Both the position numbers and the translations under genes were made by a program. The notes beneath the pieces were generated by a model, which did not search any database, was not told the origin of the DNA, and saw only the letters and a program-made list of their open reading frames with translations. Positions 2,774 through 38,928 of a stretch of 64,000 nt of DNA are shown here, piece after piece; within the stretch, counting starts at the first letter, position 1; every line of letters starts with the position of its first letter. Origin of the DNA: an uncultured bacterium (GTDB taxonomy: Bacteria > Methylomirabilota > Methylomirabilia > Rokubacteriales > DASRDR01); the NCBI GenBank assembly GCA_964463175.1, contig CAYXBJ010000092.1, forward strand, positions 70,931 through 134,930, in the 5' to 3' direction.

Positions 2774-5401
2774 TCAGCGTGGCGCGGGCGCGCCACCCGC
2801 GCCGCGAACCGGCGCCAGGGCGGCCAGGCGTTCCGCCAGGATCGTCCGCACGTCCGGCACCACGGTCACCTCGTCGATGTCGAGCGTGCCGCGGCCGAGG
2901 TAGTGCACCTGGAGCTCGAGATCCACCGGCTCCTGGTCCGTCGCAAACGGCAGGGCGGCCTCTTCCCACGCGCCCGGCGCCCCCGGCGTCCAGTCGCGCG
3001 CCGCGACCACGTCCGCGCCGCGCCCCGGCAGGCTCCGGAGGATCTCGAGCCGCGCGATCGGGCCCGCGCTCGGGTGCGTGGCGCGCAGGCGGTAGGTCGC
3101 GCGGTACCGGCCGCGAAGGAAGTGCTCGGGCAGCCAGACCTTCAGGACGCTCGGGGGCGTCCCGCCGGCCGCGGCGCGCAGGAACTGGCCGCCGCCGGCC
3201 GTCTCGTCCTCGACCACGACGCCGATCCGCGCCGGGCTCGCCTCCGCCTGCTGGCGAAACGTGTGGCCGTACCAGGTGAAGCGGCCCCGCCCGACGAGGG
3301 TCGCCCACTGCTGCCGCCAGCTCTCGCCGTCGGGGCGGGCGACGAGCGCGACGAGTGCGTCGAGCAGCCCGGGCGCAGCCCGCTCGAGCGCGGCCAGCGC
3401 GGCGCGGGCGCCGTCCGGCTGTCCAGCCCGGACGTGCGCCCAGGCGAGATCGAGGAGCCGCGCCGGCTCCATCCAGCGGGTGCCCCGGCAGGCGTCCAGC
3501 TCGCGAATAGCCGCCGCCCACTCTCCCAGCGCGAGGCGCTGGTCGGCCACCTCGCACGGCGTGCGGAGCAGGCGGACGGCGACACGGCCCTCGCCCGGCT
3601 CGAACCCCAGCCGATAGACGTGCGTGAACCAGGGGAACCCTCGGGGCGGGTCGACCTCCACGATGGTGGCGCGCCGGGCGCTGACGTCCCAGCCCCGGCT
3701 GTGGAATCCCCAGTGCGCGCGGAGCCGACCTTCTCCGGACAGGGCGAGCGTGACGCGGGGCATGGCGGTCCGCGACACCAGCATCCAGGTCCGCGGAAAG
3801 CCCGGCATCAGCACGATGGCTCGCCGATCGGGCACCGCGTCGGGATCCAGGAACACGACGTCCTCGTCGGAGGTCACGTCGTCGGGCGGCGGGAACGCAT
3901 ACGGCACGCTCATGGACTCGAGGTCGTAGTAGCGGATGGTCGGCGACATGAACCCGCGCGGGAGCCACTCGAATCGCCGCAGGAGCTTCCCCTCGCGCTC
4001 GAGACGCGCGAGGGCGCCGATCGCCGCCTCGCTGCGCTGGGCCGAGTACCAGACATGCAGCCGGTCGTCGCTCTGGCTGTCCGTCTGGAGCAGCGGGCCG
4101 CGCTCGCGCGGATCGTCCTGGGCGAACTCGCTGAGCCCGATGACCCGCGTCTCCGGGGGCACATCGCGCCGCCGCCACCGGAGTGCGTGCTCCCGCGTGT
4201 CGTCCGTCCAGAAGAGGAACGCGACGTTCAGCGCGTCCATCGCCCCCACCGCGAGCAGCGTCACCATCGCCGCCAGCGCCATTCGGCGGGACCAGCGGGC
4301 CAGCCGCGCCACGGCCACCGCGGCGGCAGTCGCCGCAAACGGGGCCAGGATCACGAGGTAGCGATCGTCGAGCCCATGCGGCCGGAACCAGACGTAGATC
4401 CCGACCAGGATGGCCGGTGTCGTCAGGACGAGCGCGCCCGGCCAGCCGCGCCGCGCGAGGAGCGCGGCGCCGGCGAGCGCGGCGAGTCCGAACAGCGCGC
4501 CGAACCAGTCGAGGGCCAGCCCGATCAGGACGCGGCTGCCGAGCCAGAGCCGCTCGAGCGCCCCCAGGGGCACGCCCAGGAACATCTCGGGGGACTCCCG
4601 CACCTGGGCGAGGAACCGGTGCGGCTCGAGCAGCAGCAGCGGGGTGCTGAGGGCAAAGGCGACGACCGCCAGGATCCCGGCGCCGGCGAGGAGCGCGACG
4701 GCGCGGGCCGGCGAGCGACGCCGCGCGCCGGCGACCGCCACGAGCGCGGTGGCGAGCACGACCACGCCGAAGAACTTGGCGGAGGCGGCGAGCCCCGCCA
4801 GCACGCCCGTCAGCAGGATCGGCGTGGCGCCCCCGGTCACCAGCGCGGTCGCCGCGGCGCCGAACGCCGCGACCACGAAGAAGGCCTGGGGCACGTCGCC
4901 CATCTCGTAGTGGGCGTTCACGATCGACACCGGGCTCAGCGCCAGGAGGCCGGCCGCCAGGAGCCCGACGCGCCAGCCGAACAACCGGCGCGTCGCGACG
5001 GCGAGGAGGCCCACCGTCGCCGTGCCCAGCACCGCGTTGAGGAGTCGCACGGTGACGACCAGCTGCGACCACGTGGGCGCCCCGGCCGGACCGTGCGGAT
5101 CGATGAGGCTCCCGATCCGCAGGAGCAGCGCGGCGAGGTACATGTGGAGGACCGGGTACGTGTCTTCGGGGACGAGATCGCCCCGCATGAACGGGACGAC
5201 CCGCAAGAGCTGCTTCGTGGTGTCCGAGTGGTAGATCCAGTCGGGCAGCCCGTAGGCGAGGCCCGCCACGCGCAGCAGGAACGCTCCCACGAGAATCGCG
5301 GGGAGGAGCGCGCGCGCCCAGGCGGGGCGCGCCGCGACACCGGAGTCGAAGCCCGGCACGCGCGACGCGAGCGGCACGCCCCGATTGTACTCGGCGCTCA
5401 C
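2774..5401 (-). CDS. GT-C fold membrane glycosyltransferase-like protein (GT39/PMT/ArnT-like N-terminal polytopic domain) with a ~500-aa C-terminal extracytoplasmic domain
   Basis: 875 aa. About 12 predicted TM helices in the first 400 aa, with the composition and topology typical of dolichyl-phosphate-mannose protein mannosyltransferase/ArnT-like proteins. Large soluble C-terminal region. Start codon uncertain. Confidence 0.6.
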   Translation of the reverse strand: MSAEYNRGVPLASRVPGFDSGVAARPAWARALLPAILVGAFLLRVAGLAYGLPDWIYHSDTTKQLLRVVPFMRGDLVPEDTYPVLHMYLAALLLRIGSLIDPHGPAGAPTWSQLVVTVRLLNAVLGTATVGLLAVATRRLFGWRVGLLAAGLLALSPVSIVNAHYEMGDVPQAFFVVAAFGAAATALVTGGATPILLTGVLAGLAASAKFFGVVVLATALVAVAGARRRSPARAVALLAGAGILAVVAFALSTPLLLLEPHRFLAQVRESPEMFLGVPLGALERLWLGSRVLIGLALDWFGALFGLAALAGAALLARRGWPGALVLTTPAILVGIYVWFRPHGLDDRYLVILAPFAATAAAVAVARLARWSRRMALAAMVTLLAVGAMDALNVAFLFWTDDTREHALRWRRRDVPPETRVIGLSEFAQDDPRERGPLLQTDSQSDDRLHVWYSAQRSEAAIGALARLEREGKLLRRFEWLPRGFMSPTIRYYDLESMSVPYAFPPPDDVTSDEDVVFLDPDAVPDRRAIVLMPGFPRTWMLVSRTAMPRVTLALSGEGRLRAHWGFHSRGWDVSARRATIVEVDPPRGFPWFTHVYRLGFEPGEGRVAVRLLRTPCEVADQRLALGEWAAAIRELDACRGTRWMEPARLLDLAWAHVRAGQPDGARAALAALERAAPGLLDALVALVARPDGESWRQQWATLVGRGRFTWYGHTFRQQAEASPARIGVVVEDETAGGGQFLRAAAGGTPPSVLKVWLPEHFLRGRYRATYRLRATHPSAGPIARLEILRSLPGRGADVVAARDWTPGAPGAWEEAALPFATDQEPVDLELQVHYLGRGTLDIDEVTVVPDVRTILAERLAALAPVRGAGGAPAPR

Positions 5402-20565: not shown

Positions 20566-21663
20566 TTACCGACCGTCCCCGCGCCGGACCAGGTGGACGG
20601 CGCTCGCCTTGAACGTCACTTCCACCGGCACGCCCGGGGCGAGAGCCAGCGCCGCGACGGCCGGACGCGTCACGAGCGCCGTGAGCGGCACCCCGCAATC
20701 GACGCCGATCCGCCAGAGCGCGCCGAGCGGCGTGACGCGCACGACGCGACCGGGCAGGCGATTCTGGGCGCTCGTCGGCCCGGAGGCTTGGGGCCCTCCG
20801 AGGGTGAGGTCCTCGGGCCGGAGGCCGACCAGCACGCGCTCCCCCGGCCGCGCGTCCCCGACAGCGGTCACGCGCAGCGGGCCCGCCTCGACCGTGATCA
20901 CGCCATCGGTCTGCGCCACGACCCGCCCGGGTAAGAGATTCTCGACCCCGACGAAGCGGGCCACCGCCTCGGTGGCGGGCGCGCCGAAGACGCGCTCGGG
21001 CGGCCCCAGCTCGGCGAGCCGGCCCGCGAGCAGGACCGCGACGCGATCGCCGAGGCGGAGTGCCTCGGCCCGGTCGTGGGTGACCAGGACCGTCGTGGTC
21101 CGCGTCGCGGCGAGGAGCCGGCCCAGGTCGTCGAGCAGCGCCTCCCGCGTCGGGGCGTCCAGCGCCGCGAAGGGCTCGTCGAGGAAGAGCACCTCCGGCA
21201 TGGCCGCGAAGGCCCGGGCCAGACTGGTTCGCTGGGCCTCGCCCCCCGAGAGCCGGTCCACCGGGCGGTCCGCGAGCGCGTCGATCCCGAGCCGGCCGAG
21301 CCATTCGCGCGCGCGGCGGTCAGCCTCCAGACGGGCCACTCCACGGAGCCGCGACGCGAGGCGCGCGTTGTACAGGACGGAGCCCCGGCAGAGCATCGCC
21401 TCCTGAAACACGCAGGCCATCCGCCGCCGCCAGGCAAGCCGCTCGGTCTCGGTCTGCGGCACCGCCCCCTGGAATCGCACCGTCCCCCGGCTCGGGCGGG
21501 CGAGCAGCGCCAGCACCCGAAGCAGCGTGGACTTGCCCGCGCCGTTCGGGCCGATGACCGCCAGCACCTCGCCGGGGAGCACGTCGAGCGCGGGCACGTC
21601 GAGGACGATCTGCCCGTCGTATCGCATCTCGACGCCCGCCGCCTCGACGACCGGGCCGCTCAC
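20566..21663 (-). CDS. molybdate/tungstate ABC transporter ATP-binding protein with C-terminal TOBE domain (ModC-like, copy 2)
   Basis: GTG start chosen so that Walker A (GPNGAGKST) lies ~37 aa from the N-terminus. LSGGEAQR signature. C-terminal TOBE-like region. Confidence 0.8.
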   Translation of the reverse strand: MSGPVVEAAGVEMRYDGQIVLDVPALDVLPGEVLAVIGPNGAGKSTLLRVLALLARPSRGTVRFQGAVPQTETERLAWRRRMACVFQEAMLCRGSVLYNARLASRLRGVARLEADRRAREWLGRLGIDALADRPVDRLSGGEAQRTSLARAFAAMPEVLFLDEPFAALDAPTREALLDDLGRLLAATRTTTVLVTHDRAEALRLGDRVAVLLAGRLAELGPPERVFGAPATEAVARFVGVENLLPGRVVAQTDGVITVEAGPLRVTAVGDARPGERVLVGLRPEDLTLGGPQASGPTSAQNRLPGRVVRVTPLGALWRIGVDCGVPLTALVTRPAVAALALAPGVPVEVTFKASAVHLVRRGDGR

Positions 21664-21718
21664 GGGACCCCCGTCTTCCGGCGGCCTTCGGCCACCGGCG
21701 CCGCAAGGACCGGCGCGC

Positions 21719-22840
21719 TCACACGCCCGCCAGCACCTGGAGCGCCCCGCGATGCATGGACACTTCCCACTCGTGATCCCGCGCGATGTCCAGGATCTCG
21801 TACACGAGATGCGGGACTTCGATCTCGAGGTCGTAAGCACCCTGGCTCGGCGAACCCGGCGCGGCGAGCCGGAAGAGGAGCGTCCACGACGTGCCGTGGT
21901 CGATCGACTCGACGACCGCCCCGCGCAGGAGATTCATGTGGTGGGCCGGATCGAGCCCGGCCCGGTCCTTCCGGATCAGCCGCACGTGCTCGGGGCGGAC
22001 CATGAACGTGACCGCGCTCCCCGGCGCCGCGAGGAACGGTGTGGTCGGCGAGTTGACGGCCTCGACGGTGTGCCCGCGCCAGGCGATCTCGACGCGATCC
22101 GGCGCGCTCTTGACCACGGTGCCGTGGACGACGTTGCGGAGCCCGATGAGCCGGGCCACCCGCTCGGATCCGGGACGCCCGAGCACGTCGGCCTTCGGTC
22201 CGGCCTGCACGACCCGGCCGCCCTCGTAGATGACCAAGCGGTCCCCGAGCTGGTACGCCTCGGCGAGGTCGTGCGTCACCAGGACGACCGTGCGGCGCAG
22301 CCCCACGATCAGGCTCCGCAGCTCCCCGCCGAGCTGCCGCCGCAACGGGGCGTCGAGCGCCGACAGCGGCTCGTCCAGGAGGAGGACCGCCGGATCGGGC
22401 GCGATCGCGCGGCCGAGGGCGACGCGCTGCTGCTGGCCCCCCGAGAGCTCGCGCGGGTCGCGCCCGGCCAGCGGTTCCAGCCCGAGCTGCGCGAGGATCT
22501 CGGCCGTCCGGCGCCGGCGCTCGGGGCCCGGCCGGTCGCGCAAGCCGAACGCCACGTTCTCCGCGACCGTGAGGTGCGGAAAGAGTGCGTACCCCTGGAA
22601 GACGTAGCCGAGACGGCGCGCCTGCGGCGGCAGCTCGATTCCGGCGGCGGTGTCGTCGAACACCCGCTCGTTGACCACCACGCGGGCCACGTCGGGTCGC
22701 GTCAGCCCGGCGAGACACTGGAGCGTGAGGCTCTTCCCGGCGCCGGAGGGACCGAACAGGGTCACGACCTCGTCGCCCGCGGACCACGCGACGTCGAGCG
22801 TGAAGCCGGGCAGGGCCTTCCGGAGGCTGACGTCGATCAC
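21719..22840 (-). CDS. molybdate/tungstate ABC transporter ATP-binding protein with C-terminal TOBE domain (ModC-like, copy 1)
   Basis: 373 aa. Walker A GPSGAGKS, LSGGQQQRVALGRA, Walker B LLLDEPLSALD. ~130-aa C-terminal TOBE-like domain. Confidence 0.85.
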   Translation of the reverse strand: MIDVSLRKALPGFTLDVAWSAGDEVVTLFGPSGAGKSLTLQCLAGLTRPDVARVVVNERVFDDTAAGIELPPQARRLGYVFQGYALFPHLTVAENVAFGLRDRPGPERRRRTAEILAQLGLEPLAGRDPRELSGGQQQRVALGRAIAPDPAVLLLDEPLSALDAPLRRQLGGELRSLIVGLRRTVVLVTHDLAEAYQLGDRLVIYEGGRVVQAGPKADVLGRPGSERVARLIGLRNVVHGTVVKSAPDRVEIAWRGHTVEAVNSPTTPFLAAPGSAVTFMVRPEHVRLIRKDRAGLDPAHHMNLLRGAVVESIDHGTSWTLLFRLAAPGSPSQGAYDLEIEVPHLVYEILDIARDHEWEVSMHRGALQVLAGV

Positions 22841-22847
22841 GGCCGTC

Positions 22848-23528
22848 TCAGAGCCGGCTGCCCAGCCGGCTCGCCAGCACGACCACGGCGCACGACAGCG
22901 TCGTCAGGACGAGCACCAGAACGCGCGCCTCCGCGATCTCCCCGGTCGAGACCGCGGTGTAGATGGCGAGCGGCACGGTCGCCGTGCGTCCCGGGATGTT
23001 CCCCGCCAGCATGAGCGTCGCGCCGAACTCGCCCAGCGCGCGGGCGAAGGCGAGGACCAGGCCGGCCACGATGCCGCGCCGAGCGAGCGGCAGGGTCACC
23101 TCGAGCGCCGTGCGCCATTCGGAACGGCCGAGGACGAAGGCCGCGCGCTCCAGATCCGGGTTGACGCTCTCGATGGCGGCCCGCGCCGGTCGGACGAGGA
23201 GCGGTAGCGCCATCACCGCCGCCGCAACGACCGCCGCGTACCAAGTGAACGGCAGGCTCCAGCCGGTCAGAGTGTAGAGGGGGCCGCCCAGCCAGCCCCG
23301 GCGGCCGAGGAGCACGATCAGGTAGTAGCCCGTCACCGTGGGCGGGAGCACGAGCGGCAGCATCACGAGGACATCCAGCGCCTGCCGCCCCCAGAAGCGT
23401 CGCTTGGCGAGCAGGTACGCGAGCGGGATGCCCACGAGCGCGTCCGCGAGCGTCGCCAGCAGGGATACGCGAAGCGACAGCCACAGGGCGCTGGTCGAGG
23501 CCTCCGGCATCGGGAGCGACTGTAGCAC
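22848..23528 (-). CDS. molybdate/tungstate ABC transporter permease (ModB/TupB-like)
   Basis: 226 aa. EAA loop ARALGEFGATLMLAGNIPG typical of ModB-family permeases. Confidence 0.85.
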   Translation of the reverse strand: MLQSLPMPEASTSALWLSLRVSLLATLADALVGIPLAYLLAKRRFWGRQALDVLVMLPLVLPPTVTGYYLIVLLGRRGWLGGPLYTLTGWSLPFTWYAAVVAAAVMALPLLVRPARAAIESVNPDLERAAFVLGRSEWRTALEVTLPLARRGIVAGLVLAFARALGEFGATLMLAGNIPGRTATVPLAIYTAVSTGEIAEARVLVLVLTTLSCAVVVLASRLGSRL

Positions 23529-23561
23529 GCGGGTCCGGGGACCCCCGGGCCCGCCCGGGCG

Positions 23562-24257
23562 CTAGGTGCGGCCCCGCTGCTGGATCCAGGTGAGCGCACA
23601 GTTCACCAGGAACGTGAGGGCGAGCAGGATGACTGACAGCGCGATCGCCACGTCGAAGTTCCCCTTGCTCGTCTCGAGGACCGTGGCCGTCGTCAGCACC
23701 CGGGTCTGCGCCCGGATGTTCCCGCCGACCATCAGCGAGGCGCCGACCTCCGAGATCACCGCGCCGAAGCCGGCCATCAGAGCCGCGAGCAGCGGGAGCC
23801 GCGCCTCGCGGATCAGGACCCCGAGCAGCTGGAGCCGGGAGGCGCCGAGGGCCTGCACCTGGAGCCGGAAGCGCTCCGGGATCTGCTGGACCGCCGCCAG
23901 CGTGAGCCCGGTGACGACCGGGACGGCGATGACGAACTGGGCGATCACGATCGCCGTCGGCGTGTAGAGCAGCTCCAGCGCCCCCAGCGGGCCGCTCCGC
24001 CAGAGGAGGATCGACACGAAGAGGCCCACGACGACCGGCGGCAGCCCCATCCCGGTGTTCACGAGGGCCACGACGAGGCCGCGCCCGGGAAACCGCACGA
24101 GCGCGAGAACGGTCCCGAGCGGCATGCCGGCGAAAAGGGACAGCACGGTCGCCGCCCCCGACACCTTGAGCGAGAGCCAGGTGACGCCGAGAAGCTCGGG
24201 GTCGGCGGCCGCCAGAAGGGCCCCCGCCTGGACCAGCCCCTCGCCGATCAGTCCCAC
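23562..24257 (-). CDS. molybdate/tungstate ABC transporter permease (second, ModB/TupB-like)
   Basis: 231 aa. EAA-like loop AVISEVGASLMVGGNI. Paralogous to but distinct from the adjacent permease. Confidence 0.85.
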   Translation of the reverse strand: MGLIGEGLVQAGALLAAADPELLGVTWLSLKVSGAATVLSLFAGMPLGTVLALVRFPGRGLVVALVNTGMGLPPVVVGLFVSILLWRSGPLGALELLYTPTAIVIAQFVIAVPVVTGLTLAAVQQIPERFRLQVQALGASRLQLLGVLIREARLPLLAALMAGFGAVISEVGASLMVGGNIRAQTRVLTTATVLETSKGNFDVAIALSVILLALTFLVNCALTWIQQRGRT

Positions 24258-24310
24258 GCGGGCACCGCAATCGGGGACGCTACGCTCGGCCTCCGATCAC
24301 CTGCGGCGGG

Positions 24311-25120
24311 TCACCGTGACCCGGGAAGCGGCGGCTGGAAGCCGAGCCGGCCGAGCACCGCCTGACCCTCCGCTCCGGTTACGAGGTCCACGAAAGCCCG
24401 CGCGAGCGACGTCTGGCTCGAAGCGGCCACGACCGCGATGGGGTACACGACTGGGGAATAGGTATCCTCCCCCGGCCGGAAGGCCTGCCGGACGCGCGTC
24501 CCCGCCGTCGGCACATCCGTCGCGTAGACGAACCCCGCGTCCACTTCTCCGCGCGCGACGTACTCCAGAACCTGGCGGACGTTCTCGGCGAAGACGAGCT
24601 TCGGGCCGAGCGCATCCCAGGCGCCGGTGGCCTGCAGGCTCTGCTGGGCATACTGCCCTGCCGGCACCGTCTTCGGGTTGCCGAGGGCCACGCGGGTCAC
24701 CCGCGGCGTGAGCAGGTCGGCCACCGCCGTCAGGTCCGGGCCGGCGTCCGCCGGCGTGACGACGACCAGCACGTTCCGCGCAAACGCGCGGCGGGTGTCC
24801 GGGAGGATCAGCTTCTTCTGTTCGAGCTCGTCCATCTGGCGCGTCGCCGCCGAGACGAACACGTCGATCGGCGCTCCGGCCTCGATCTGCTTCTGGAGAT
24901 CGCCCGACGCGCCGAAGTTGTACCGCATGGTCACGCCCGGCTGGCGCCCGGCGAAGGTCCGGCCGAGGCTCTCGATCGCCTCCTTCATGCTGATGGCGAC
25001 GGACAGCGTCAGCTCCTCCGCCGATGCGGGCGTGACCACGCCCACGGCAAGCGCCACGGCGACGACGAGGACCGTCCCGGAGAGACGGCCCCGGCGCCTG
25101 GATCGGCGAGCGGGCGTCAC
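24311..25120 (-). CDS. modA: molybdate ABC transporter substrate-binding protein
   Basis: Lies within the 531-aa track ORF. GTG start preceded by GGAGG. Signal peptide then a ModA-like ...FGASGDLQKQIEAGAPIDVFVSAA motif. Start overlaps the tupA stop (GTGA). Confidence 0.8.
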   Translation of the reverse strand: MTPARRSRRRGRLSGTVLVVAVALAVGVVTPASAEELTLSVAISMKEAIESLGRTFAGRQPGVTMRYNFGASGDLQKQIEAGAPIDVFVSAATRQMDELEQKKLILPDTRRAFARNVLVVVTPADAGPDLTAVADLLTPRVTRVALGNPKTVPAGQYAQQSLQATGAWDALGPKLVFAENVRQVLEYVARGEVDAGFVYATDVPTAGTRVRQAFRPGEDTYSPVVYPIAVVAASSQTSLARAFVDLVTGAEGQAVLGRLGFQPPLPGSR

Positions 25121-25965
25121 TTCCCCACCTCCTCTTCCCGCTGGCCGGCGATCGGCACGAACAGCGCCTGTCCGTACTTGTCCACCCCGAAGGTGCGGAT
25201 CGTCGCCTGCACCACCGGCGACAGCATGAAGTCGGCGAACGACTTGCCGGCGGCCGCATTCACACGCGGCCCGTTGGCCGGGTTGACCTCCATGACGGAG
25301 TAGATGTTGAGGAGCGGCCGGTCCTTCTCCACGAGGATCGGCAGGTCGATCCGCTTCTGGAAGGCGAGATACGTGCCCCGGTCGGTCAGCGTGTAGGCCC
25401 GACGGTCGTTCGCGATGCCGAGCGTCTGTCCCATCCCCTGGCCGGACTCGAGGTACCACGCCCCCTTCGGCTCGATCCCGGCCTGCTTCCAGAGTGCCTG
25501 CTCGAGGAGATGGGTCCCGGACTTGTCCCCGCGGGAGACGAAACGGGACTCCCTGGCAGCGATCATCCGGAGGGCCTCGACCGCGGTCATCCCTTTGATC
25601 TTCGCCGCGTCTTCGGCGGGGCCGATCACGACGAAGTCGTTGTACATGACGAGGCGCCGGTTCAGCATCTTGCCCTCGTCGACGTACTTCTTCTCGAGCG
25701 CCGGCGCGTGGGCCAGCGTGACGTCCGCCTCGCCGCGCGCGGCCAAAGCGAGCGCCTGGCCCGTCCCCACCGAGATCGTCTTGACGGAGTAGCCGGTGGC
25801 CTGCTCGAACATCGGAACGAGGACATCGAGAAGCCCCGAGTCCTGCGTGCTCGTCGTCGTCGAGAGGATGAGCGTCCGGGAGGTCGGGCCGGGCGTCTGG
25901 CCCCACGCGAGCCCGGCGCCGAGAAGGAGCATCAGGGTGACCAGGACGAGTCGACGTCGCGTCAT
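25117..25965 (-). CDS. tupA: tungstate ABC transporter substrate-binding protein
   Basis: 282 aa. Signal peptide. Contains the TTTS anion-binding motif (LILSTTTSTQDSGLLD) characteristic of TupA/WtpA-family proteins. Confidence 0.85.
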   Translation of the reverse strand: MTRRRLVLVTLMLLLGAGLAWGQTPGPTSRTLILSTTTSTQDSGLLDVLVPMFEQATGYSVKTISVGTGQALALAARGEADVTLAHAPALEKKYVDEGKMLNRRLVMYNDFVVIGPAEDAAKIKGMTAVEALRMIAARESRFVSRGDKSGTHLLEQALWKQAGIEPKGAWYLESGQGMGQTLGIANDRRAYTLTDRGTYLAFQKRIDLPILVEKDRPLLNIYSVMEVNPANGPRVNAAAGKSFADFMLSPVVQATIRTFGVDKYGQALFVPIAGQREEEVGK

Positions 25966-26133
25966 GCCGTGGCGTCCTCCGGTGACGGGTCTAGGGCCGG
26001 GCCGGCCACTCGGCCGCCCGGGGCCGCCGGGCAGCGCGGCCGGGCCGGGCCAGGATCGGCCAGCCCCGGACAGTATGACCGATCCCGGGCGCCGGCGCGG
26101 ACCACCGGCGGCGCGCGGCGAATGGGACTCGGG

Positions 26134-27054
26134 TCAGGCCACCTCCCCCAGCACGCGGCCGGTCTGCTTCCAGTCGTAGCCGCCTAGGCGCTCGAGTCCC
26201 TGGCGGAACCGCTCCGACCGGATCGCCTCCAAGAGCGTCTGGAGGGGGGGCTGGAAGAAGGTGTCCTTCGGGACGACGAGGTCGAGCCGCTCGCGGGCGA
26301 GGGGGACGAAGCCCAGGCTCAGAGCCAGCGCCACCCCGTGAGTCCCGACCCCAACGTCGGCCTCGCCGCGCAGCACCCGGAGGGCCACCGCCCAGTGCGT
26401 CGAGACCTCCTCTCGATAGCCCACGACCCCCGCGTGCTCGACCCCCGCGGCGGCCAGGGCTTGGTCGGTGAACGCGCGCGTCGCGGAGTCCGGCTGACGG
26501 TTCACGAAGCGGAGGCCGCGCCGGAGGTCGCCCACGCCTTCGACCTTCCGGGGATTGCCCGTCCAGACCAGGAGCCCGAGCTCGCGGACGAACAGGTTGA
26601 CCACCACGGCGGGGCGCTCAGGCAGGTGGCGCGGGATGTACGCGAGGTCCGGCCCGCCTGACGGGGAGGCGACGTGCGCGCACACCGCGACATCGGCTCG
26701 GCCCTGCGCCAGCGCCGCCAGACCCCCGAGGCTTCCGACGGTGGCGATGAAGAGCACCGGGTGGCCCGCCTGCTCGCGGAGGGCATCCGGCAGGTTCTGG
26801 AGCGCGGGGTCGTCGCTCCCGGCCAGGAAGAGACTGCCGGGCGGCAGCGTCGTGCGCCCGCGGGCCGACCGCTCCCCGCCCCGCTGGCGCGCGCTCGCCT
26901 CGAGCCACTCATCCAGGAGATGCACCGGGAAGAGCCACTTGCCCGTGACTCGGCTCGCCGGAATGCCGCCCCGCTGGGCGAGCAGATACACCGAGCGGGG
27001 GTTGAGGCGGAGATAGCGGGCGGCCTCGGCCACCGTGAGGAAGCGTGGCTCCAT
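26134..27054 (-). CDS. TunR-like transcriptional regulator: excisionase-family HTH fused to a periplasmic-binding-protein-like (COG1910 molybdate-binding) domain
   Basis: N-terminal LTVAEAARYLRLNPRSVYLLAQRGGIPASRVTGKWLF is a MerR/excisionase-type HTH. The remaining ~240 aa are PBP-like. Immediately upstream of the tup/mod operon. The track start at 27093 is TTG, so the ATG at 27054 is preferred. Confidence 0.65.
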   Translation of the reverse strand: MEPRFLTVAEAARYLRLNPRSVYLLAQRGGIPASRVTGKWLFPVHLLDEWLEASARQRGGERSARGRTTLPPGSLFLAGSDDPALQNLPDALREQAGHPVLFIATVGSLGGLAALAQGRADVAVCAHVASPSGGPDLAYIPRHLPERPAVVVNLFVRELGLLVWTGNPRKVEGVGDLRRGLRFVNRQPDSATRAFTDQALAAAGVEHAGVVGYREEVSTHWAVALRVLRGEADVGVGTHGVALALSLGFVPLARERLDLVVPKDTFFQPPLQTLLEAIRSERFRQGLERLGGYDWKQTGRVLGEVA

Positions 27055-27076
27055 TCCGGAGCGCAGCGTAGCATGT

Positions 27077-27106
27077 CGATCAAACTGGATCAAATTAGAT
27101 CAAGGT
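27077..27106. promoter_or_regulatory. three direct GATCAA(A/G) repeats at 10-bp spacing in an AT-rich island, a candidate operator/promoter upstream of the TunR-like gene
   Basis: Sequence gatcaaactg gatcaaatta gatcaaggtg, 23-52 bp upstream of the ATG at 27054. Local GC is far below the ~70% background. Confidence 0.3.
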
Positions 27107-27185
27107 GAATCCTGGATACTCCTCTCACGAAAAGATGGCCGGGGGCGGTGCAAACCGGTCGGGACCGAGGGGATCCGGGCGAAAT

Positions 27186-28793
27186 CTAGTGGGCCGGGGC
27201 GAGAACGCGGCCGGTCGGCCGCGCATGGAACTGCCCCGCCTCGAGCACGGCGCCCCCGTTGATCCAGACCCAGCGGAAGCCGGCCGGATAGCGGTGCGGC
27301 GCCTGATACGTGGCGAGGTCATCGACGGTGTCCGGGTCGAAGATCACGAGGTCCGCGGCGGCCCCCGGGCGGAGCACGCCACGATCCGTGAGACCGAGTC
27401 GCTGGGCGGACTGGCCGGTCATCTTGTGGACCGCCCCCTCCCAGCTGAGGACGCCGCGCTCCCGCACGTAGGTCCCCAGGATCTTGGCGAAGCACCCGTG
27501 CTGCCGGGGATGGGGCTTCCCGGGATGCGTGTCCTCGGGTCCCGCACAGAGGCCGAGGTTGTCGGAGCCGACCGTGACGTGGGGGAACTGGAGCCCGCGG
27601 GCGACGTTGGCGTCGAGCATCAGGAAGTTGATCATCGAGACCTGCCCCTCGGCTTCGAGGAGGAGGTCGACCAGGACGTCCTCGGGGGACGCGCGCCGGG
27701 CCGCAGCGATCTCGGCCATGGTCTGCCCCTCGGTGCTCGGCACGCGCGGGCACTCCGCGACCATGACGTCCGACCACGCCACCGGGCCATTCGGCCCGTT
27801 CCACTCCCCCTCGGCCGCCCGGCCCCCGTCGAGGATTCGCTGGCGGGCGGCGCCGTCGGCCAGCCGGGCGAGCAGGGTTGGCATTCCCCCTTCGTGCACC
27901 CAGGTGGGCAGCAGGCTCGCCAGCGTGGTGGAGCCGGCCGTGTACGGGTACATGTCGGCCGTGACGTCGATCCCCCGCGCCCGGGCCGTCTCGATCGTCC
28001 GGAGGGCTTCGCCCATCTTGGGCCAGTTGGCCTTGAGGCACGCCTTCAGGTGCGAGATCTGGACGGGCAGCCCGCCCTCGTCGCCGATCCGGATCGCCTC
28101 GGCGATGGCCGCCTCGAGGGTCGGCCCCTCCCCGCGGATGTGCGAGGTGTAGAGCCGACCGGGACGGCCCCCGACCACCCGGGCCAGCGCCACCAGCTCG
28201 GCCGTGTCCGCGTAGACACTCGGCGCGTAGATCAGCCCCGTCGACAGGCCGAACGCGCCGGCATCGAGGGCCTCGCCGAGCGTCGCGGCCAGGCGCCGTG
28301 TCTCGTCCAGCGTCGGGGGCCGGCGCTCGAAGCCCATCGCCGCGATCCGGAGCGTGCCGTGGCCGACGAAGGGCACGACGTTGCCCGTGAGCCCGGCCTG
28401 GCGGAGGCGCTCGAGCCAGGAGCCAAAGCTGGTCCAGTCCCAGTCGAGCTGGGCGGAGAGGAACGACGCCCACTCGCGGAGCAGCCCGCCGCCCGGCGGC
28501 GCGGGCGCCGGGGAGAAGCCGCACATGCCGGTCACCTCGGTGGTGACGCCCTGACGGACCTTGGCCTCGGCGGACGGGTACGCGAGCAGCGAGAAATCGG
28601 AGTGGGCGTGCATGTCGATAAAGCCGGGCGCGACGATGCAGCCGGTCGCGTCGACCACCCGCCCCGCCTCGCCCGCGAGGCCCGGCGCGACCGCCAGAAC
28701 CCGATCCCCGGCAAGCGCGACATCGGCGCGCCGGCCCGGGGCTCCGGTACCGTCGACGACGGTCCCGCCGCGGATCAGCCAGTCGAAGGCCAG
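27186..28793 (-). CDS. D-aminoacylase (N-acyl-D-amino-acid deacylase)
   Basis: Track ORF 27186..28658 matches D-aminoacylase throughout (PGFIDMHAHSD, etc.). The conserved N-terminal LAFDWLIRGGTVVDG continues in frame up to a TGA, with no ATG/GTG/TTG present. Apparent CTG start at 28793 preceded by GAGGGG. Confidence 0.75.
   Translation of the reverse strand: MAFDWLIRGGTVVDGTGAPGRRADVALAGDRVLAVAPGLAGEAGRVVDATGCIVAPGFIDMHAHSDFSLLAYPSAEAKVRQGVTTEVTGMCGFSPAPAPPGGGLLREWASFLSAQLDWDWTSFGSWLERLRQAGLTGNVVPFVGHGTLRIAAMGFERRPPTLDETRRLAATLGEALDAGAFGLSTGLIYAPSVYADTAELVALARVVGGRPGRLYTSHIRGEGPTLEAAIAEAIRIGDEGGLPVQISHLKACLKANWPKMGEALRTIETARARGIDVTADMYPYTAGSTTLASLLPTWVHEGGMPTLLARLADGAARQRILDGGRAAEGEWNGPNGPVAWSDVMVAECPRVPSTEGQTMAEIAAARRASPEDVLVDLLLEAEGQVSMINFLMLDANVARGLQFPHVTVGSDNLGLCAGPEDTHPGKPHPRQHGCFAKILGTYVRERGVLSWEGAVHKMTGQSAQRLGLTDRGVLRPGAAADLVIFDPDTVDDLATYQAPHRYPAGFRWVWINGGAVLEAGQFHARPTGRVLAPAH

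Positions 28794-38839: not shown

Positions 38840-38928
<89 letters not shown>

Follow-up and report, generated by a model that had tools for sequence, protein, structure and literature searches.

The 64-kb window analysed here (64,000 nucleotides of contig CAYXBJ010000092.1 from an uncultured Rokubacteria bacterium, to which positions refer unless a locus is named) carries on its minus strand the gene for a 306-residue regulator, which stands ahead of interleaved tungstate (tup) and molybdate (mod) transporter genes and is preceded by three direct repeats one helical turn apart. We assign a probability of about 0.7 to the reading that this protein is a TaoR-family regulator which, bound to the phased repeats with tungstate or molybdate, represses both itself and the tup/mod operon. 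The analysis provides an operator and promoter model, validated by comparison across loci, for a TaoR-type regulator of an uncultured soil phylum; to our knowledge, nothing has been known of trace-metal control in Rokubacteria.

Phased direct repeats upstream of the regulator gene

The regulator gene and the elements assigned upstream of it are as follows.

26134..27054, minus strand: regulator gene, TaoR family, 306 residues; Pfam and NCBIfam matches, homologue alignment with invariant Met1, and an AlphaFold2 (AF2) model
27055..27064, minus strand: 10-nucleotide stretch between the predicted -10 element and the ATG, without a Shine-Dalgarno sequence; predicted transcription start at ~27058
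27065..27073, minus strand: predicted extended -10 element, TGcTACGCT (TGnTAnnnT), from comparative conservation
27078..27083, minus strand: repeat unit 3, TTGATC, proximal, within the predicted -35/-10 spacer; present in 14/15 loci, absent in L008
27088..27093, minus strand: repeat unit 2, TTGATC, doubling as the predicted -35 hexamer with a 17-nucleotide spacer to the -10 element; 15/15 loci
27098..27103, minus strand: repeat unit 1, TTGATC, distal, at ~-45 relative to the predicted transcription start; unit at this register in 15/15 promoters
27108..27113, minus strand: fourth unit, AGGATT, degenerate but in phase with units 1-3; a good unit (at least 5/6 positions) here in 7/15 loci

The gene strand reads caccTTGATCtaatTTGATCcagtTTGATCgacATGCTACGCT ... 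and then ATG, and the minus-strand sequence of the repeat region is ccaggattcaccTTGATCtaatTTGATCcagtTTGATCgacATGCTACGCTgcgctccggaATGgag. The pattern TTGATC-N4-TTGATC-N4-TTGATC occurs once in the window (27078-27103, no mismatches; the hexamers read GATCAA on the plus strand), and it appeared in none of 100 dinucleotide-preserving shuffles, even with two mismatches allowed. Positions 27069-27118 are the lowest-GC 50 bp of the 64 kb, with a GC fraction of 0.38 against a mean of 0.73 (standard deviation 0.066; window GC 72.8%). An earlier note on this DNA had described three direct repeats one helical turn apart within an AT-rich island, and both observations hold: the units are exact, have a 10-bp period and are unique in the window.

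A set of 15 Rokubacteria promoters was compared, comprising that of the window, those of 12 syntenic orthologues and those of two further copies (L007 and L015), with the upstream regions anchored on TGnTAnnnT. This element occurs once per promoter, 8-10 nucleotides before the ATG, in the window and in 13 of the 14 other main-clade promoters, L012 having a 1-nucleotide variant. Units with a TGAT core lie at offsets of -13, -23 and -33 from the -10 element in 14/15, 15/15 and 15/15 loci, respectively. Apart from the fourth unit, no conservation was seen upstream of the units or in the rest of the flanking intergenic sequence of the 15 promoters. The arrays comprise three to five units with a 10-bp period and the consensus aATTTGATY; L001 and L002 have four perfect units. 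Because GATC is present in only 31/45 units, TTGATT being common, while TGAT is kept in 42/45, GATC as such is not the signal; as judged from this alignment, the conserved core of the unit is TGAT(Y) and neither GATC nor GATCAA.

The middle unit (TTGAtc) lies 17 nucleotides from TAnnnT and was therefore assigned as the putative -35 hexamer. A consensus promoter and terminator scan of 25800-27400 called nothing, the -10 of the window having been missed because TACGCT fits the consensus at only 3/6 positions, and the promoter model thus rests on comparative conservation. That the array keeps a fixed register with the -10 element in 15 loci lends weight to the proposal in the earlier note that the repeats are a strong operator or promoter candidate. 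The same promoter is kept in L007, a copy elsewhere in its genome that is followed only by a ModA-like gene, and in L015, which lies next to a transposase; L024 has the L015 promoter almost base for base, its gene being truncated by an integrase. Away from the promoters of this gene, neither a two-unit nor a three-unit motif was found in the window or across ~284 kb of Rokubacteria DNA, which is without other molybdenum/tungsten (Mo/W) enzyme genes, and no further sites ahead of tupA, modA or any other gene came to light when the window and every Rokubacteria locus were scanned for the motif.

On comparative grounds, the start codon of the regulator is the ATG at 27054. All 25 aligned homologues (306-309 residues) start at a Met equivalent to this ATG, and public gene calls of the identical protein, made independently, give the same start and a 306-residue product. 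In 12 of the 20 homologous loci compared, any other start is precluded by an in-frame stop codon 6-33 nucleotides upstream of the conserved ATG. The TTG at 27093, the start of the longest open reading frame, falls within the middle repeat, the predicted -35, and is an artefact of longest-ORF calling; the preference of the earlier note for ATG 27054 was correct. Both the start-codon call and, as described below, the family label of the regulator are thereby corrected.

No Shine-Dalgarno sequence was recognized before the regulator ATG in any of the same 20 loci (best GGAGG match, 2-4/5). In most loci, that of the window among them, tupA is by contrast preceded by GGAGG or GGGAGG; L008 and L009 have a purine-rich match that is weaker. 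Since only 8-10 nucleotides separate the -10 element from the ATG and a Shine-Dalgarno sequence is lacking in every locus, the regulator mRNA probably has no leader, or one a few nucleotides long. In the clade with 65-68% identity (L011, ~1310-1370; L146, ~2940-3000), TGCTAnnnT lies ~20 nucleotides from the ATG, not 8-10, so that a short leader, and not a leaderless mRNA, would be expected there.

Repeats were also seen in more distant relatives. Two Desulfobacterales loci encoding homologues at 36-38% identity (L017, 5860-5915; L019, 1370-1430) have ATTnTTGG(T) direct repeats, spaced at multiples of ~10-11 bp and abutting TTGACA upstream of the regulator, as compared with three to four aATTTGATY units here. 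These loci suggest that the repeat architecture is general in the family and that the unit sequence differs, the comparison being with homologues at this level of identity. A scan of metagenome contigs for TGATYNNNTTTGATYNNNTTTGATY gave at least 120 matches; among the matches listed, almost all lie in AT-rich or tandem-repeat DNA, and four loci with GC >0.6 looked unrelated. A 66%-GC metagenome contig (L090, 150-225, minus strand) carries six TTTGATT units with an exact 10-bp period, and no regulator homologue is present in the DNA downstream.

Family assignment, binding precedent and candidate effector

The N-terminus of the regulator matches the helix-turn-helix (HTH) family HTH_17 (PF12728, residues 5-53, E 2e-13, 50.6 bits against a cut-off of 27), and its C-terminus matches PBP_like (PF12727, residues 98-278, E 5e-54, 182.8 bits), consistent with the fusion of an HTH to a periplasmic-binding-protein (PBP)-like domain described in the earlier note. 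TIGR01764, the NCBIfam model for excisionase-family DNA-binding domains, matches at 39 bits (cut-off 28.8). The AF2 model (mean predicted local distance difference test score, pLDDT, of 75) has a winged helix at residues 5-57, a disordered linker at 56-73 and a two-lobed PBP fold at 75-306. The PBP domain resembles the domain at the C-terminus of the MoeA-fusion 'molybdopterin biosynthesis protein' PRK14498 (E 1e-53). An exhaustive profile-free search returned 1990 cluster representatives that match the regulator at E<=1e-10, and the family is therefore large; they include full-length relatives of ~300 residues and many proteins of ~640 residues that align over the C-terminal ~230 residues only, at the positions matched by the PRK14498 profile.

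A PDB sequence search with the full regulator gave no match. The best Foldseek matches of the model in the PDB were full-length LysR-type regulators and PstS-like binding proteins, a resemblance that, at the level of the model, is a generic architectural analogy only. LysR-type regulators have an N-terminal HTH (HTH_1), a linker and a type-II PBP-fold sensor. The regulator here has the same order of HTH, linker and PBP-fold sensor, the LysR type differing by its HTH_1; a LysR-type identity was rejected, there being no HTH_1 match and a LysR_substrate score of 25.9 bits, under the Pfam cut-off of 28.

We assign the regulator to the TaoR-type family by its architecture and its association with Mo/W transporter genes. 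TaoR, the tungsten-containing aldehyde oxidoreductase regulator of Desulfovibrio, combines an excisionase-type HTH-17 with a PBP-like domain (Rajeev et al. 2019, as cited in PMC11980592) and is likewise associated with tungstate/molybdate transporter genes. The corresponding features are present here, namely HTH_17 and TIGR01764, PF12727 and the tup/mod transporter association. The regulator differs from TaoR in belonging to Rokubacteria (Methylomirabilota), being only 33-38% identical to the homologues retrieved from Deltaproteobacteria and Alphaproteobacteria, and in being the first gene of a combined tup and mod operon with a leaderless-type predicted promoter. In the 2019 work of Rajeev and co-workers, TaoR reportedly represses tupABC when tungsten is replete and activates aor. 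The regulator is a clear but fairly ordinary addition to the TaoR family, and the general picture of Mo/W homeostasis is unchanged.

The earlier note had named the regulator TunR-like. Its functional idea, a tungstate/molybdate-responsive regulator, agrees with the present data, while the name does not, HTH_17 with a PBP-like domain being the architecture of TaoR. TunR is reported, in the 2013 work of Kazakov et al., to consist of an XerC/XerD-like DNA-binding domain and ModE-like TOBE sensor domains and to use a 30-bp site. The regulator has no Phage_integrase or related Pfam match and no TOBE match, and HTH_17 is its only DNA-binding domain; the TunR label was rejected because the integrase-type and TOBE domains of this definition are absent. 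Tungstate-responsive control of Mo/W transporter genes, as predicted for the regulator here, would be a feature common to both. ModE represses modABC when the metal is replete, senses it through TOBE domains and binds a palindrome. The proposed system would share metal-replete repression of transporter genes with ModE, which differs by its TOBE sensing and its palindrome. An excisionase proper of a phage or an integrative and conjugative element (ICE) was also rejected, as the protein is a two-domain protein of 306 residues in conserved chromosomal synteny with no integrase. The same housekeeping synteny, together with the position of the gene at the head of the tup/mod transporter operon, upholds the view in the earlier note that the regulator is not a phage excisionase.

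In a sequence comparison with the PDB, the regulator HTH comes closest to RdfS (E 0.021), BldC (E 0.37) and an AlpA protein. The segments of BldC and RdfS that align with it exceed the Pfam threshold for HTH_17, and weak MerR Pfam matches were also seen in this comparison. BldC of Streptomyces, like the regulator an HTH_17 protein, binds head-to-tail to AATTXXXX(C) direct repeats, with two to four protomers on repeats about one turn apart, its wing lying in the A/T-rich minor groove and its recognition helix in the next major groove (PMC5859096). Group-17 HTH proteins (RdfS, BldC and Pukovnik Xis) form filaments with one DNA turn per protomer (PMC11963761), and recombination directionality factors (RDFs) use direct repeats one helix turn apart, Apl requiring three adjacent operators and repressing promoters (PMC7498355). 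More generally, phage 186 Apl, lambda Xis and ICE RdfS are winged-helix monomers that bind cooperatively to one-turn direct repeats and can repress promoters (PMC7498355, PMC11963761).

The unit found here, AATT-TGAT-C with a 10-bp period, fits the BldC template AATTXXXX(C), and the anatomy of the repeats would be explained by the way in which other HTH_17 proteins bind head-to-tail to one-turn direct repeats. Provided that the regulator is the binder, the repeats would thus conform by analogy to the target pattern of head-to-tail HTH_17 proteins. BldC Lys26 aligns with the invariant Arg20 of the regulator. BldC differs in being a 68-residue stand-alone domain without a sensor, and its sequence likeness to the regulator is weak (E 0.37). 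Unlike Apl, Xis and RdfS, the regulator has no integrase partner, att site or mobile element; it carries a domain for ligand binding, and its proposed target is chromosomal and metabolic. The operator geometry of a TaoR-type sensor family can in this way be linked to the head-to-tail mode of stand-alone HTH_17 proteins. The link between the TaoR-type operator and BldC or the RDFs offers a useful lead on mechanism but does not amount to a new kind of system, and the operator is clade-specific. With a 50-bp operator and one protein, the system is a compact one for studying how a PBP sensor controls an excisionase-type DNA-binding domain.

The candidate effector was considered by comparing the PBP domain of the regulator with the TupA encoded by its own operon, which gave a weak match (28% identity over 133 residues, E 0.015) spanning the segments of the proposed oxyanion contacts. 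Those proposed for TupA are Ser11, within the TTTS motif, Arg118 and Thr124 (PMC4139814). Their equivalents in the regulator are S80, R186 and T192, of which R186 and T192 are invariant and S80 is nearly invariant in 25 homologues. Because of these contact-residue equivalents, the MoeA-fusion relatives and the operon context, tungstate or molybdate is the likely ligand.

Proposed repression and its alternatives

In the mechanism that we propose, the promoter would be formed by TTGATC as the -35 hexamer, a 17-nucleotide spacer and TGcTACGCT as an extended -10 element ending 10 nucleotides before the ATG. The operator would comprise the three exact and one degenerate aATTTGATY units, one helical turn apart, from ~-55 to -20. 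The HTH_17 domains of several protomers would bind these units head-to-tail, the wing probably contacting the A/T-rich part of the unit and the recognition helix its TGAT core, and RNA polymerase would be excluded from the occupied -35 hexamer and spacer. Binding of tungstate or molybdate by the PBP-like domain would favour the repressing assembly. In a metal-replete cell, the transporters (both importers, by co-transcription) and the regulator would then be shut down, a case of negative autoregulation.

Several findings weigh against this scheme. The -10 element of the window itself (TACGCT) is weak, and the scanner called no promoter. Orthologues at 65-67% identity keep only one or two recognizable units and L008 is without the spacer unit, so that the three-unit array is clade-specific. 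The base-contacting Arg30 of BldC aligns with Leu24 of the regulator, and base read-out would therefore differ from that of BldC in detail. Sites at -45 and -35 could also be compatible with activation. Finally, regulation by TaoR is reported to be tungstate-dependent in vivo, while tungstate leaves its DNA binding in vitro unchanged (PMC12327845), so that the notion that the ligand increases affinity may be wrong.

A tentative variant, which we regard as a minority possibility, would have the ligand act on a nucleoprotein filament. By analogy with the proteins described above, the HTH_17 domains would polymerize head-to-tail, and closing of the PBP domain on tungstate or molybdate would set the cooperativity of the protomers or the length of the filament, not the intrinsic affinity for DNA. 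We know of no oxyanion regulator described with such a filament-gating mode of metal sensing. If true, gating of this kind would explain why TaoR binds DNA equally with and without tungstate in vitro (PMC12327845).

Activation or dual control by the same protein at the same sites is unlikely, and would take one of two forms: protomers at -55 and -45 might recruit or reshape RNA polymerase when the metal is scarce, or the spacer might be remodelled with polymerase bound, in a MerR-like manner. HTH_17 is MerR-related, as reflected in the weak MerR Pfam matches, and the -10 in the window is weak. TaoR itself is reported, in the 2019 work of Rajeev and co-workers, to be an activator of aor as well as a repressor of tupABC. 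Binding of the BldC type, moreover, distorts DNA strongly (PMC5859096). However, the spacer has the optimal 17 nucleotides and not the 19-20 typical of MerR-activated promoters, the units cover the -35 hexamer and spacer in 14/15 loci, which is the classic position for a repressor, and repression under metal-replete conditions is the usual behaviour of operons that take up a toxic, scarce oxyanion.

It is improbable that the repeats are bound by some other factor. The obvious candidate would be an OmpR/PhoB-type response regulator, since at the targets of such proteins the -35 is likewise replaced by 10-11-bp direct repeats. Among bacterial proteins that bind direct repeats, response regulators are the best known (PMC5859096, discussion). 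The motif, however, travels with the regulator gene even outside the syntenic locus (L007, L015/L024) and is seen at no other place in the 284 kb of Rokubacteria DNA; the regulator has no response-regulator gene next to it, and both the repeat geometry and the AATT-N4-C template match the HTH_17 class of the regulator itself. We consider it very improbable that the repeats are promoter architecture only, a -35 hexamer with phased T-tracts that would act like an UP element by curving the DNA. The middle unit does coincide with the -35, T-tracts phased at 10 bp bend DNA, and this is the most AT-rich spot of the window; curvature, however, needs neither a conserved TGAT core (42/45 units) nor a unit within the spacer, and the arrangement is found at no other promoter in the 284 kb. 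A Dam-methylation-sensitive switch or the excisionase/att site of a mobile element, to which three GATC sites in 26 bp and the excisionase-type domain (TIGR01764) might point, has a negligible probability and is already largely refuted by the conservation pattern, the GATC reading being rejected for its non-conserved final C and the mobile-element reading being at odds with a conserved housekeeping synteny without integrase and with the 230-residue sensor domain of the protein.

Operon and genomic context

Downstream of the regulator, the following features were assigned.

25966..26133, minus strand: GC-rich (80-90%) spacer of 168 bp separating tupA from the regulator; remnant of an additional ModA-like gene of other loci, to whose 3' end it aligns
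25117..25965, minus strand: tupA, tungstate-binding protein with signal peptide and TTTS motif; PBP_like_2, E 8e-49
24311..25120, minus strand: modA-like binding protein, starting at a GTG that overlaps the stop codon of tupA
23562..24257, minus strand: tupB-like permease; Pfam and NCBIfam
22848..23528, minus strand: modB permease; TIGR02141, 235 bits, over the curated cut-off
21719..22840, minus strand: modC-like ATPase; Pfam and NCBIfam
20566..21663, minus strand: second ATPase with C-terminal TOBE, WtpC/TupC-like; start probably GTG 21663 or ATG 21627; Pfam and NCBIfam

The region 20566-25965 (minus strand) thus holds tup and mod ABC importers interleaved in one operon, in the order tupA-modA-tupB-modB-modC-tupC, with starts and stops overlapping or closely spaced. 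The best NCBIfam match of tupA is TupA (E 7e-65), at 218.9 bits, which is under the curated equivalog cut-off of 400. TOBE is found in the operon in the last ATPase only. The great majority of the syntenic Rokubacteria loci have the order peptidyl-prolyl isomerase (PPIase)-amidohydrolase-regulator-tupA-modA-tupB-modB-modC; in a few the amidohydrolase, modA or other members are missing. Homologues at 33-38% identity in Desulfobacterales and Pseudaminobacter also adjoin tupABC.

The gap between the regulator and tupA ranges from 43 to ~925 bp across loci. Long gaps contain an extra gene for a ModA-like binding protein, whose start overlaps the regulator stop; this gene is intact in L001 (6921-7802), L006, L008 and L009, and remnants of it are present in the window, L002, L012 and L014. 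The 168-bp spacer of the window still aligns with the 3' end of the extra gene and is therefore a deletion remnant. No promoter, terminator or Rfam match was found in this spacer, and its predicted fold is no better than that of shuffled sequences (z -0.81). The regulator stop overlaps the start of the next gene in L001, L145, L146 and L149, and in more divergent orthologues it overlaps the tupA start by 4 nucleotides. Given these overlaps, the extra gene in the long gaps and a spacer that is a remnant without promoter or terminator, the regulator is almost certainly co-transcribed with the transporter genes as a single operon. A molybdenum cofactor (Moco) riboswitch or other RNA element was rejected, as Rfam searches of the full window at gathering thresholds, and of 25800-27300 at E<=1, gave nothing relevant.

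Copies of the regulator outside the syntenic locus were seen in one metagenome-assembled genome (MAG), MFD04850.bin.2.156, which has extra copies with the same operator at L015 (5114-6343), next to a DDE transposase, and at L024 (6561-7910), where the gene is truncated by a phage-type integrase gene. From these two copies, the regulator-operator module has evidently been duplicated or disrupted by mobile elements. In a second genome, MAG MFD04850.bin.1.411, the syntenic copy (L023, 5800-7900) has an intact operator and -10 element, and its regulator and tupA are broken by several frameshifts and stops; at another place in this MAG (L007) the regulator is present in intact form with the same operator. 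The L023 locus could be a pseudogene with regulation in trans, or could reflect long-read assembly errors. It was dropped as evidence for trans-regulation, since tupA is also frameshifted, so that a pseudogene and assembly errors are equally likely.

No Mo/W enzyme genes were seen in the window. The rest of it is housekeeping in character, with genes for methionyl-tRNA synthetase (MetRS), thymidylate kinase, BipA and a DEAD-box helicase. A tRNA gene at 38843-38926 (minus strand; Rfam, 57.7 bits) adjoins the genes for trigger factor, ClpP and ClpX.

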